A DNA stretch of 64,000 nucleotides. Source: Escherichia phage Ecwhy_1. This document shows, one piece after another, positions 13,886-63,789 of the stretch. How positions within the stretch are numbered: position 1 is the first letter of the stretch; each line of letters starts with the position of its first letter. The notes under the pieces are model-generated. The model worked only from the letters and a program-made list of their open reading frames with translations. It was not told the DNA's origin and searched no databases. Made by a program: the position numbers and the translations under genes. The stretch is taken from the sequence record MH791411.1; one strand, given 5' to 3'.

Positions 13886-13913
13886 ATTATATCACATTCT
13901 TTGCGTTTGTCAA
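13886..13913 (-). promoter_or_regulatory. Sigma70-type promoter with extended -10, drives ClpA-like gene
   Basis: Minus strand reads TTGACA-N16-(TGTGa)TATAAT: -35 at 13908-13913, -10 at 13886-13891. Confidence 0.6.
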
Positions 13914-13918
13914 CAAGG

Positions 13919-13926
13919 TAAATAAA
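13919..13926 (+). promoter_or_regulatory. Late-promoter-like TAAATA motif upstream of 13956 gene
   Basis: gTAAATAAAg about 29 nt upstream of the ATG at 13956. Confidence 0.3.
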
Positions 13927-13955
13927 GATATACCCGATTTATTTTGGAGACAAAC

Positions 13956-15452
13956 ATGGCATATAGAATGTGGAAAAAAGGTAGAACCAATGATTACAAG
14001 TTCATTGACTCTGCCATAGCAGAACAATACAACATCGGTGGTGTTGACATGTGGCTTTATGCCTATGTCGGACCAAAACAAGTCGCTGATAACACTGATT
14101 TATCATACGGCGGTGATTATTATGGATCAGATAGTACCGTTGTGTCAAGCATTGGTGATTTAATTTTTGGTGACACTCCAAGTCGTAACTATAATCTCGA
14201 AGCTATCACCTTAAGTTGCGTCTACCAAGTCCAAGAAGCAACTCCTGACTTGAAAATCCCAGGATTGTTCTTCAACTTTAACACTATGGACATCACAATT
14301 CATTATAACACAATGATTCAGCGTTTGGGAAGAAAAATTATGCCAGGTGACGTAATCGAACTTCCTAACTTACGTGATTTTGATGTACTTGGTAAAGATT
14401 CTGGTTTAAACCGCTTCTATGTAGTACAAGATGGGTTTAGAACGTCAGAAGGTTACTCAGTTACATGGCAACATCACATTTACAAACTCCGTGTTAAACC
14501 TCTTACTGATTCACCAGAGTACTCTGACCTTCTAGGTAACAATAACTACCCTGATGACCCAGATGATCCAAACAACGGCAATGGTAATACTGATGATGGC
14601 TCTTCAGAGAACAGCAGCTATGGTAATGAAATGGATATTATGAACCGTATCATTATGCAAGCTGATGATGAAGTACCATACATTCATTTTACTAACGAAC
14701 ACTTGTTCGATGACAGACCAGATACTGTTGATTTGTCTAAGTATATGCTAAATGGATACGAATTACCAGAGGAACCAGCAAATAAAATGTATTTCCTCAA
14801 GAAAACTTACCCAGTACTGAAAGAACTATCTAATGATACATGGATTTCTGTAGAAGTCAAGCGTGGAACAATCTTTCCTCGCAAACCGATGGATGGTGAC
14901 TTCTTCTTTAAAGAAAACGAGGCTGATGTCACTGGCTTCTCATTGTATCAATACGATAAATCTGCCAAAAAGTGGCTAAATTGTGATGTTGAGTATACTA
15001 CAGAAAGCACACCACCACAAGGGGTTGATGATTTTTATATTGAATACAAAGAACCACACATTTATCAGTACTTAAATGGTAAATGGGGAGAACCAGAAGT
15101 AACTTACGTTAATGACCCATTCACTTCTAATAGTGTTTATGGAAATATCGATTCACAACAAGATTATCGTCCTAAGATTCCTCCAGCACGAGGTACAGTT
15201 CCTGAAGGTAATATGTTCCCAAGTGATGCAGTTGATGGTGATTACTACTATCGTACCGATTATACACCAGTAACCCTATGGGAATACAGTGCGTCCAAGA
15301 ATTCTTGGGTGATTTTCGATTACGGTGGTAGAAAACCGTGGGAAGGTGCAGATCTTGCTCTAACAGAATTTGTTAATAGCCCGAACCGTGTACCATTACA
15401 TGATGCAGTTAAACCTAATACAGCGTATCGTATACATAAGGATTCAGAATGA
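13956..15452 (+). CDS. Hypothetical structural protein (baseplate/tail module)
   Basis: ATG at 13956 has GGAGA 5 nt upstream (the track's start at 13944 is TTG). Its stop overlaps the next start (ATGA), indicating translational coupling. Confidence 0.55.
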   Translation: MAYRMWKKGRTNDYKFIDSAIAEQYNIGGVDMWLYAYVGPKQVADNTDLSYGGDYYGSDSTVVSSIGDLIFGDTPSRNYNLEAITLSCVYQVQEATPDLKIPGLFFNFNTMDITIHYNTMIQRLGRKIMPGDVIELPNLRDFDVLGKDSGLNRFYVVQDGFRTSEGYSVTWQHHIYKLRVKPLTDSPEYSDLLGNNNYPDDPDDPNNGNGNTDDGSSENSSYGNEMDIMNRIIMQADDEVPYIHFTNEHLFDDRPDTVDLSKYMLNGYELPEEPANKMYFLKKTYPVLKELSNDTWISVEVKRGTIFPRKPMDGDFFFKENEADVTGFSLYQYDKSAKKWLNCDVEYTTESTPPQGVDDFYIEYKEPHIYQYLNGKWGEPEVTYVNDPFTSNSVYGNIDSQQDYRPKIPPARGTVPEGNMFPSDAVDGDYYYRTDYTPVTLWEYSASKNSWVIFDYGGRKPWEGADLALTEFVNSPNRVPLHDAVKPNTAYRIHKDSE

Positions 15453-62361: not shown

Positions 62362-62694
62362 TTACTCTTCGTCTTCAGTCAAGTCTTCTTGAACTGGATG
62401 TTCGGGGTGGTTACGGCGATGCAATTTGATGCTTTTGTCTTTACCTAAGACAGTTTCCATTTTTTCAAATGAATCACCAATTGCTTTGTATAAATCTGCA
62501 TCATCGGCGGTGACAATCTTACCACCTGATGTTAAAGTTACGGAATATTGATTCTTATGCTCTTTCTTCACATGAACACCGATATAAAGTACTGAAGAAT
62601 CACTAAACTTCGTTAGTGCATTTGCTTCTGCATGAATCGCGTCATTGATTGCTGGAGTAATATCAACATTACCTTGGATAACTAAATCTAGCAT
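62362..62694 (-). CDS. Ribosome hibernation promoting factor / RaiA (YfiA) family protein
   Basis: Aligns by eye along its length with short HPF/RaiA proteins (VIQGNVDITPAINDAI..., VTLTSGGKIVTADDADLYKAIGDSFEKMETVLGKDKSIKL); acidic C-terminal tail. Confidence 0.8.
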   Translation of the reverse strand: MLDLVIQGNVDITPAINDAIHAEANALTKFSDSSVLYIGVHVKKEHKNQYSVTLTSGGKIVTADDADLYKAIGDSFEKMETVLGKDKSIKLHRRNHPEHPVQEDLTEDEE

Positions 62695-62719
62695 AATTTA
62701 CCTACCTTTTTTTTTAGTT

Positions 62720-63673
62720 TTAAAGATTACTAACTAACAATTCTGCACGGTTTCCTACTTGACGATACCATAGAGAATTCTTAATTTCTTTTTTGAACTT
62801 GTTATTATTTTGATTATCAACGCTTTTCCATAATTTATTGAAAGTATTTAACTTATCAACTCCTAATGTAAATGCCATCTCAAATAAAATTCGTTGTTGT
62901 TCAGCCGTAAGGTTTGTTGCATTTCTTTTCTTCAATAATAAAACTAAATCATTATTAGTTCGTTCCATGTCAGACAATAAAAGTTTATGTGCTTGTGACT
63001 TCGTAATACCATTACGATACTTACTTGCATCTGATTCTTTCTTTCCAAGATAATGTCCGTACCCAATAGTGAAGTTACCTTTTATATCACGATACGGATA
63101 AAATTTAGAATTTCGATATGGAACTCCAACTTTCCCACCAAGTAAACGTCGTTTGTTCTTGGACTGAAATTCAATAGAACCTTCAGCTTCTTTGATGTGA
63201 TTGACAATTTCTGGATCTTTATAATCAAACAGTACAGTCACATCTGGTAACAATACGTGCTTCAAATCCTCTTTTGTTGGGATAAAGATACCCTGAGAAG
63301 TATGAAGAGTTGCATTTAAGTTGATGTTCTTCAACAAAATGACATAATCTTCAATCTGTACATTTTTAGGTTTAAATTTCTGTGCAATAGAATAATAACT
63401 ATCACCAGGTTGAACCGTATAATGTTTCTCGCTGCTTGGAACTGCTTTTGGTACTGACACCTGTGGTAGTTCCTGCTTTTGAATTTGCGTAACTTGTGGT
63501 TTTAAATTATGCACCTGACTTTCGTCTAATGATGATGCACGATCACTTTGAGAAAAACCATAAAATCCAATCGCAGCGAATAGGGCTGATGAAACTAATA
63601 CGCCTACGGCAATTTTAGTTTTCAGTTCTTTTTTCGCTTTTTTCAAAACGCCTCCTTTGTTGGTTGTTAACAA
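62720..63673 (-). CDS. Membrane-anchored LysM-GH24 (T4-lysozyme-like) peptidoglycan hydrolase
   Basis: N-terminal basic stretch plus hydrophobic helix IAVGVLVSSALFAAIGFYGF, LysM (YTVQPGDSYYSIAQKF) and GH24 motifs (EAEGS, YRDIKGNFTIGYGH, SLWYRQVGNRAELL). The likely true start is the internal TTG at 63646 after AAAGGAGG. Confidence 0.75.
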   Translation of the reverse strand: MLTTNKGGVLKKAKKELKTKIAVGVLVSSALFAAIGFYGFSQSDRASSLDESQVHNLKPQVTQIQKQELPQVSVPKAVPSSEKHYTVQPGDSYYSIAQKFKPKNVQIEDYVILLKNINLNATLHTSQGIFIPTKEDLKHVLLPDVTVLFDYKDPEIVNHIKEAEGSIEFQSKNKRRLLGGKVGVPYRNSKFYPYRDIKGNFTIGYGHYLGKKESDASKYRNGITKSQAHKLLLSDMERTNNDLVLLLKKRNATNLTAEQQRILFEMAFTLGVDKLNTFNKLWKSVDNQNNNKFKKEIKNSLWYRQVGNRAELLVSNL

Positions 63674-63761
63674 TGAGCAATCACAAAGAGGGCAAAGAGG
63701 CCATTTGCAAAAGCCTCATTGGACTTTCTACAGTACTCAGTTGTTCTTTGGAACATTTAAG

Positions 63762-63789
63762 TAGTATAGCATACTTTTTAGTTATATCA
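63762..63789 (-). promoter_or_regulatory. Sigma70-type promoter upstream of lysozyme/HPF genes
   Basis: Minus strand reads TTGATA-N16-TATACT; -10 at 63762-63767, -35 at 63784-63789. Confidence 0.5.

Follow-up and report, generated by a model that had tools for sequence, protein, structure and literature searches.

Jumbo phages of 'group 2' encode sigma factors yet lack an RNA polymerase (PMC7824862). For the relatives of the phage considered here, the informative promoter literature is limited to predictions for CBB and GAP32 (PMC5259590) and RNA sequencing (RNA-seq) of PA5oct (PMC7318152). In CBB, three promoter classes were predicted using MEME: an RpoD-like class in the putative early region, whose members carry UP-like tracts; a 'divergent RpoD-like' class (Promoter 1), TGAAACG-N16-TGnTATAAT, which precedes DNA-synthesis and gp55-like genes and is reported there to occur in GAP32 too; and a late ATAAATA class before structural genes, whose published sites never carry T at the first position (PMC5259590). 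PA5oct, according to the accessible text of its report, is rifampicin-sensitive and has TTGAC and TATAATA motifs at transcription starts mapped by RNA-seq (PMC7318152). In this work, we describe a family of predicted sigma-70-like promoters with a 16-nt spacer on the minus strand of a 64,000-nucleotide stretch of Escherichia phage Ecwhy_1 (MH791411.1). This whole stretch is called the window below. The class was predicted earlier in CBB and GAP32, and the addition made here is its description in a lineage for which no earlier promoter analysis was found.

By megablast, the window falls among the PBECO4/121Q/RaK2-like jumbo coliphages, and its nearest relative with a complete genome is Escherichia phage Turkey3 (PQ471515.1; 98.9% identity over 25 kb); fEgEco12, WPEC3/5 and EC.P1 are 98-99.9% identical to the window, and PBECO4-type phages about 84%. 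The minus strand of the window corresponds to the plus strand of Turkey3, on which genes point in one direction without interruption for about 145 kb, thyA being the last. Coding sequence occupies 95.7% of the window, leaving 4.3% non-coding. A search of the accessible literature on PBECO4/121Q-type phages (PBECO4, 121Q, phAPEC6, Sharanji, fEgEco12 and UE-S1) found no promoter analysis.

The pattern (T/G)(T/G)GACA-N16-TGnTATAAT occurs exactly at five minus-strand positions, 13886, 40125, 43185, 43277 and 59136, which we call the strict sites (Table 1). A preliminary description of the window had listed eight positions as sharing one motif; these five hold exactly, whereas 55527 has no -35 element, the site placed at 63762 is weak and actually lies at 63763-63790, and 59066 is coding sequence. 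The -10 element is an exact TATAAT at the strict sites and at 55527, and TATACT at 63763. In all five strict sites the dinucleotide TG stands one base 5' of the -10 element, as TGA or TGT. The -35 element matches TTGACA at 6/6 positions in three of them (13886, 43185 and 43277) and at 4/6 in the other two, where it reads GGGACA; the spacer is always 16 nt.

Such sites are far more frequent than chance predicts. On the minus strand, TTGACA-N16-TATAAT is found three times against 0.19 expected, a number reached in 0 of 100 shuffles, and GGGACA-N16-TATAAT twice against 0.04 expected; overall, the strict pattern is 15- to 50-fold over shuffles. A loose sigma-70 scan of the window, in contrast, gave 66 matches against 65.9 expected, so that it can neither support nor refute the family and only the strict pattern is informative. 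An independent measure was obtained with a weight matrix trained on 29 Turkey3 sites, all of them outside the region equivalent to the window. The strict sites are the top five hits of this matrix in the window (17.7-26.5 bits), while on shuffled sequences the maximum averages 12.1 bits with a 95th percentile of 17.3. Eight hits in the window reach 12 bits, all of them on the minus strand, whereas 0.64 would be expected for the two strands together. The strict sites are all intergenic (for 40125, given the ATG at 40090, which is preceded by a Shine-Dalgarno (SD) sequence, as the start of the gene, as in the Turkey3 annotation) and correctly oriented toward their downstream genes, and terminators lie directly upstream of 40125 and 55527. 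A search of the whole window against Rfam at gathering thresholds returned nothing, and the sites are thus not accounted for by any known RNA element.

The preliminary description had suggested a genome-wide motif search, and this was run on the whole Turkey3 genome, comparing spacers of 10 to 25 nt. The class recurs throughout the genome, on one strand and with spacers of 16 or 17 nt: nnGACA is found upstream of TATAAT 39 times at N16 and 16 times at N17, against 0-4 times at each other spacer, and the opposite strand contains no such pair at N16 or N17. The 55 sites at these two spacers compare with 2.9 expected per strand. TGnTATAAT is similarly skewed, with 78 copies on one strand and 15 on the other. 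When the class is defined by TGn and at least three of four matches to GACA at N16, 34 Turkey3 sites are obtained, all on the strand that matches the minus strand of the window. The logo of these sites gives the consensus t[G/T][G/A]GACAa - 16 bp - (R)TG(A/C)TATAAT(g). At the first hexamer position, 23/34 sites have G and 9/34 have T; at the second, 17 have G and 12 have A; C appears at neither. The base before TG is R in 32/34 sites, and A or C is preferred at the n of TGn.

An SD sequence, a start codon and an open reading frame (ORF) follow within 120 nt of 21 of the 34 class sites, as compared with 26% of random positions; where the start codon lies within this distance, leaders are 13-102 nt long, about half of them 29-45 nt. 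Class sites often stand directly after a terminator. The Turkey3 genes behind them include those for ClpP, the sliding clamp, SSB, primase, an exonuclease, tRNA-Ser and a gp55-like late sigma factor. The last of these was identified through PHROGs (PHROG 12791), a Pfam search with the protein giving no hit. Because the PHROG match leaves out the N-terminal part of the annotated ORF and starts at residue 36, the class promoter lies upstream of the real start of the late-sigma gene. On the evidence of these counts and positions, we regard the five strict sites as real promoters of one genome-wide class.

Comparison with relatives shows that the cores of these sites have been retained. Between the window and PBECO4, the -35, TG and -10 positions of the five sites are identical at 68/70 positions and the spacers at 45/70 (p=6e-7). 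In more distant genera the promoter is kept in place and the upstream hexamer is changed; before the ATPase gene, for example, the window, PBECO4 and RaK2 all have TTGACA, and CBB has TGAAACG. CBB is syntenic with the window and has orthologous promoter positions for all five strict sites. The counterparts of 13886, 40125 and 59136 are published members of the CBB class (Table 1); that of the 43185/43277 pair is a TGAAACG site before the CBB ATPase gene that is not in the published table. Given this positional orthology, the window family represents, in Asteriusvirus-type phages, a class that is known from relatives by prediction. Both versions consist of a hexamer, 16 nt and TGnTATAAT, and both are found in the neighbourhood of DNA-synthesis, non-structural and gp55-like sigma genes. 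They differ in the upstream element, TGAAACG in CBB (as a hexamer, G(A/G)AAC(G/A)) against GRGACA or TTGACA here, with only an 'AC' core in common at equal distance. We therefore read the two hexamers as lineage variants of one class and not as an identical motif.

The preliminary description had placed TTGACA and GGGACA sites in one family, and the orthologous positions bear this out, since TTGACA, TAGACA, GGGACA, GGAACA and TGGAACG replace one another there. A strict division of the window sites, with TTGACA members assigned to the host and GGGACA members to the phage, was considered and dropped, because TTGACA, TAGACA, GGGACA and TGGAACG interchange at orthologous positions.

The same comparison bears on the possibility that the family is an artefact, produced either by chance in AT-rich DNA or by the copying of one cassette. 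The chance-level result of the loose scan would agree with it, as would the resemblance of 43185/43277 to a 92-bp tandem duplication and the fact that 59066 is coding sequence. However, the strict pattern lies far above shuffles, on a single strand, with a single spacer length and between genes, and spacers vary between sites while cores persist across genera. For the five strict sites an artefact is refuted, and as a general explanation we consider it extremely improbable.

Two other kinds of promoter motif help to place the class. The first is a late-type motif, nTAAATA-N3-4-TATA, which stands before structural genes on both strands of the window (Table 1). The motif had to be defined in this form because the window contains no exact copy of the T4 late octamer TATAAATA, against about 5-7 expected; the whole Turkey3 genome contains nine copies, on both strands. 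Late promoters of T4 type, used with gp55, have a single such element some 10 nt before the start; no TATAAATA-like late element was found within the strict sites. Conversely, the minus-strand structural genes (sheath, tube, adaptor and others; 43330-56385) are without the strict motif. The preliminary description had observed that no member of the family precedes the plus-strand structural genes, which is true, but strand is not the separator: the late-type motif occurs on both strands, so it is the class of gene that separates the motifs.

The second is a class with an AGTACT box found in Turkey3, for example AGTA-(C)TTGACA/CTTGCAA-N9-AGTACTG-TATAAT-AGTTTACAT, with 21 copies on one strand and four on the other. 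Of the 21, 12 lie at 0-20 kb; the class is also concentrated at 280-330 kb, among short hypothetical genes, and none is present in the promoter regions of the window. The main concentrations extend over 1-21 kb and 293-327 kb. The extended -10 class, in contrast, spans 40-330 kb of Turkey3 with no member at 0-40 kb. Among exact N16 sites, TGn accompanies TT hexamers in 4/18 cases and non-TT hexamers in 17/21 (p=4e-4). The split that holds is the one between the AGTACT-box class and the extended -10 class. From its location, the AGTACT-box class is probably the immediate-early set, and its palindromic AGTACT could be the binding site of a regulator.

Turkey3 contains, in addition, a terminator-promoter cassette, GGGTTGACTTCGGTC(A/G)GCCCTTTTTGCTATAAT, repeated six times at about 317.9-333.8 kb. 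Its hairpin includes TTGACT, a -35 element for TGC-TATAAT at 18-nt spacing; the hairpin, GGGTTGACTTCGGTCAGCCC, is listed three times among the CBB terminators.

The extended -10 class stands before replisome and nucleotide-metabolism genes and before the gp55-like late-sigma gene, the last of these in CBB as well. From this gene content and from the distribution of the other two classes we infer that its timing is probably delayed-early or middle rather than simply early. The preliminary description had proposed early promoters read by host RNA polymerase; promoters of non-structural genes that use the host polymerase are retained here, and 'early' is reread. A useful comparison is with the middle promoters of T4, in which a sigma-70 -10 element is combined with a MotA box, TGCTT, centred at -30 and 11-13 bp from the -10 element, and which depend on AsiA and MotA. 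Like the present class, T4 middle promoters are sigma-70-like, often with an extended -10 and a phage-specific upstream element, and they serve replication, nucleotide-metabolism and late-sigma genes in a tier between sigma-70 early and gp55 late transcription. Unlike them, the present class has its element at -35 with a 16-nt spacer and shows no TGCTT-like box, and these phages encode an RpoD-like sigma, which T4 does not.

The remaining question is which factor reads the upstream hexamer. The class resembles E. coli extended -10 promoters of sigma-70 in its consensus -10, its TG at -15/-14 and its 16-nt spacing; three members have TTGACA and A-rich UP-like tracts, and 55527 is a pure extended -10 site. 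It differs in that most members, consistently across about 30 sites, have G and then R in place of the TT that sigma-70 prefers; further preferences are R just before TG and A or C as the n of TGn. A simpler explanation, in line with the preliminary description, is that these are plain host sigma-70 early promoters, read from injection onward, with the G/R preference representing drift tolerated by the extended -10. The phage encodes no RNA polymerase (PMC7824862), and in such a phage promoters of sigma-70 type are to be expected. The perfect extended -10, the 16-nt spacing, the 4-6/6 matches in the -35 element and the three window sites with full consensus and upstream A-tracts all fit. The phage sigma lacks the sigma-70 determinants for -10 and TG, and no AsiA or MotA homologue was found by phmmer with single query sequences, which are further points in its favour. 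However, drift leaves it unexplained that about 30 independent sites of a single genome have G and then R and never C, and that the hexamer changes from genus to genus (GRGACA, TGAACA, TGAAACG) on Enterobacterales hosts; the CBB form, TGAAACG, matches TTGACA at only 2/6 positions. Moreover, a separate TTGACA class, that with the AGTACT box, fills the regions typical of host takeover, and the class discussed here drives replisome and late-sigma genes. On balance, we consider the plain host explanation unlikely, although it deserves serious attention.

An alternative is that the hexamer is read by the RpoD-like sigma encoded by the phage. This protein (XMR01419.1 in Turkey3), which roughly 90 genomes carry, matches Pfam sigma regions 2 and 3; its region 4 is atypical, and there the putative recognition helix varies together with the promoter hexamer. 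It reads RSSLHRKY in Turkey3 and RSSIHRKY in PBECO4, both with GRGACA; RGTLHYKF in RaK2, with TGAAC(A/G); and KATLSRRY in CBB and Yen9, with G(A/G)AA(C/T)(G/A). SE_PL, whose group with Munch has GRGACA, provided a case for which the prediction was made beforehand: its sigma is 37.5% identical to that of Turkey3, about as distant as the CBB sigma (37.0%), and it still shares the helix type, RTSLHRCY, and GGGACA (its hexamer is GGGACA, GAGACA or GGGATG at N17). The RpoD-like sigma is only 60% identical between Turkey3 and PBECO4, as compared with 92% for primase and about 84% for DNA of the window region, so that it evolves unusually fast except in the putative recognition helix. The hexamer differs by phage genus while the hosts are all Enterobacterales, which argues for a phage-encoded reader of this element; to our knowledge, region 4.2 of sigma-70 is identical across those hosts. 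From these patterns we infer, tentatively and at somewhat under even odds, that the phage sigma reads the hexamer. A stronger form of this idea is possible but falls somewhat short of an even chance: host sigma-70 would not read the hexamer, and hexamer and region 4.2 helix would have evolved together from one jumbo-phage genus to the next, giving a naturally occurring set of sigma factors with matching -35 specificities that all use the same Enterobacterales core enzyme. In that case, the perfect TTGACA members would serve twice, before the switch as well as after it.

Several points weigh against a phage-encoded reader. The covariation of helix and motif rests on four lineages and is confounded by phylogeny. 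In sigma-70, residues W433/W434, E458 and H455 serve recognition of the -10 element and TG; in an alignment with sigma-70, the phage sigma has T/T, V, and Y or H at these positions. Since the -10 and TG are nevertheless the best conserved parts of the class, sigma-70 fits better as their reader. GRGACA keeps four of six -35 positions next to a consensus extended -10, so that sigma-70 would probably transcribe all of these promoters in vitro and a phage factor is not required by the sequence. The perfect TTGACA in three of the five window sites fits the simpler host explanation for those sites. For the class as a whole, a search of the accessible literature found no transcriptomes or mapped 5' ends for the Turkey3/PBECO4 lineage.

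Some of these difficulties would be removed if the phage had appropriated sigma-70 in the manner of T4 middle promoters, with host sigma-70 on the extended -10 and a phage activator that is not a sigma factor on the hexamer. Such an arrangement would reconcile a -10 and TG that are perfect for sigma-70 with a phage-specific upstream element, and the class precedes replication, nucleotide-metabolism and late-sigma genes, much as the middle regulon established for T4 includes them. However, a phmmer search of T4 AsiA and MotA against all Turkey3 ORFs gave a best E value of 0.96 (a weak test, with single query sequences), and the element lies at the normal -35 distance of 16 nt, unlike the MotA box at -30, and does not resemble TGCTT. 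We give this explanation little credence.

The reading that we prefer is as follows. Since the phage has no RNA polymerase of its own, the host core enzyme would initiate at the class promoters, whose -10 and TG extension match reading by E. coli sigma-70. The three TTGACA members, having the full sigma-70 consensus and upstream A-tracts, can fire with unmodified host holoenzyme; elsewhere, sigma-70 alone probably recognises the upstream hexamer poorly, and the lineage-specific hexamer would be read by the phage RpoD-like sigma through its atypical region 4.2. The class would start the non-structural modules, which alternate with late structural ones; in the window these are the modules of the ClpA-like gene, the MoxR-like ATPase and its VWA partner, the thyA operon and the Nudix genes. 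In the order of tiers, AGTACT-box sigma-70 promoters (immediate early) would be followed by this class and then by the nTAAATA late promoters, served by the gp55-like sigma. We put the probability of this proposal as a whole (working class promoters, host core, a delayed-early or middle tier, and a hexamer most likely read by a phage sigma) at roughly 0.55.

Table 1. Promoters, promoter-like sites, terminator and late-type motifs in the window.
Feature	Position	Strand	Sequence and matrix score	Context	Counterparts in relatives
ClpA-like AAA+ gene promoter	13886..13913	-	TTGACA-N16-TGA-TATAAT, 23.9 bits	Gene start 13847	PBECO4 TAGACA; RaK2 TTGACA (N18); Munch GGGACA (N17); Yen9-03 GGAACA; CBB TGGAACG (Porf_235)
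thyA-operon promoter	40125..40152	-	GGGACA-N16-TGA-TATAAT, 26.5 bits, best in the window	First gene at ATG 40090	PBECO4 GGGACA; RaK2 TGAACA; CBB TGAAACG (Porf_218)
Intrinsic terminator hairpin	40166..40187	-	GAGAACGG...CCGTTCTC + T tract	Directly upstream of the 40125 promoter; closes the ATPase/VWA unit	Same hairpin in PBECO4
Proximal promoter-like site before ATPase gene	43054..43082	-	TTTACT-N17-TATAAT	Directly after conserved hairpin 43083-43119	Conserved in PBECO4; RaK2 TTTACT-N17-TATCAT
P2, downstream member of tandem pair	43185..43212	-	A-tract, then TTGACA-N16-TGA-TATAAT, 18.9 bits	MoxR-like ATPase gene (41685..43013)	PBECO4 and RaK2 TTGACA-N16-TATAAT; CBB TGAAACG-N16-TATAAT
P1, upstream member of tandem pair	43277..43304	-	A-tract, then TTGACA-N16-TGT-TATAAT, 19.9 bits	92 bp from P2	PBECO4 TTGACA-N16-TACAAT
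Extended -10 without -35	55527..55537	-	TGTGATATAAT = TGTGA-TATAAT	ORF 55221..55499 and dNMP kinase gene downstream	TGTGATATAATGAT conserved in PBECO4; no equivalent at the matching position in CBB
Nudix-glutaredoxin module promoter	59136..59163	-	GGGACA-N16-TGA-TATAAT, 17.7 bits		PBECO4 GGGACA, spacer identical at only 6/14 positions; CBB TGAAACA...TATAGT (Porf_193)
Weak relative	63763..63790	-	TTGATA-N16-TGC-TATACT, 4.7 bits	LysM-lysozyme/HPF genes	PBECO4 TTGTAA-N16-TGC-TATACT, same position
Late-type motif	1511, 13918, 19599, 23892, 28974, 35638	+		Before structural genes
Late-type motif	56408 (adaptor), 54538 (sheath), 51472 and 50695 (tube), 47762, 47240, 45137, 19570	-

The sites precede the genes that the preliminary description had named. 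Pfam confirms the ClpA-like, thymidylate synthase, Nudix, lysozyme/LysM, HPF and dNMP kinase identities, and weakly that of the MoxR-like ATPase (AAA, E=3e-4). The promoter of the ClpA-like gene is divergent from, and overlaps, the late-type motif GTAAATA (13918, plus strand) of a structural gene at 13944..15452. The thyA operon, which ends in a DprA-like gene and thyA, begins at an ATG behind the SD sequence GGAGAG. In the WPEC3 annotation, the first gene after this promoter (39860-40189) starts instead at 40189, inside the terminator and upstream of the promoter; from the sequence context, ATG 40090 fits better as the start.

The leader of the ATPase gene is more complex. The promoter is single in RaK2 and CBB as against the tandem pair in the window, where a 317-bp leader region (43013-43330, minus strand) contains P1, P2, a small hairpin followed by T5 (43150-43170), the hairpin 43083-43119 and the proximal site. 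The stem of the latter hairpin is GGAACTG/CAGTTCC, with GGACTG/CAGTCC as its RaK2 counterpart. The leader folds better than shuffled sequences (z = -2.97); a terminator hairpin is also present in the CBB leader, and the window leader has no Rfam match. The leader may be an attenuator or a short non-coding RNA. A 30-codon ORF annotated in WPEC3 between the tandem promoters (43186-43278) is probably spurious. Downstream of the ATPase gene, the product of the gene at 40200-41609 (minus strand), called 'HNH endonuclease' in several relatives, instead matches DUF2201_N (a putative metallopeptidase domain) and a VWA-like domain, which makes it the usual partner of the MoxR-type ATPase encoded by its upstream gene.

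At 55527 a terminator hairpin (55544-55574) occupies the position of the -35 element, and the site is a probable weaker promoter that is independent of -35. The site at 63763 lies about 90 nt upstream of its genes (63763 to 63673). The candidate at 59066 was rejected: GGTATAAT (59071-59076, minus strand) belongs to the codons Cys-Gly-Ile-Ile of the Nudix N-terminus (ATG 59093), no -35-like element accompanies it, and it is not among the matrix hits. The Nudix gene itself (58649-59095, minus strand) is split across two reading frames. Its N-terminal segment MRYSCGIIFYRDGQILIGHTT, which starts at the ATG just mentioned with an SD-like AAGAG upstream, is out of frame with the ORF that carries the Nudix box (58649..59062), and joining them requires a +1 shift near ACA-ACA-C-GGA-CAG. 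PBECO4 shares this arrangement, with an internal ATG annotated as the start. The gene could contain a programmed frameshift or be truncated at its N-terminus.

Three further matrix hits on the minus strand, with 12.4-15.4 bits, lie inside coding sequence (48930-48960, 22394-22424 and 7454-7484), one in a tail-tube gene and the other two opposite structural genes of the plus strand. Chance could account for these matches, or they could be promoters of internal or antisense type.

PA5oct, the relative with RNA-seq data, is likewise a jumbo phage of group 2; it relies on the host RNA polymerase, and its promoters are bipartite and sigma-70-like. It differs in its Pseudomonas host and its genus, and the accessible text of its report mentions neither a GRGACA-type variant nor a subdivision into classes (PMC7318152). 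For the 350-385 kb coliphage lineage used in phage-therapy studies, promoter and operon boundaries can now be proposed, together with corrections of annotated start codons such as that from 40189 to 40090. The implied programme would have three tiers, as in T4, with a phage RpoD-like sigma taking the part that MotA and AsiA play there. If the covariation of sigma and hexamer is real, these phages would provide orthogonal pairs of sigma factor and -35 element for the E. coli core polymerase, of use in studies of region 4 specificity and in synthetic biology.

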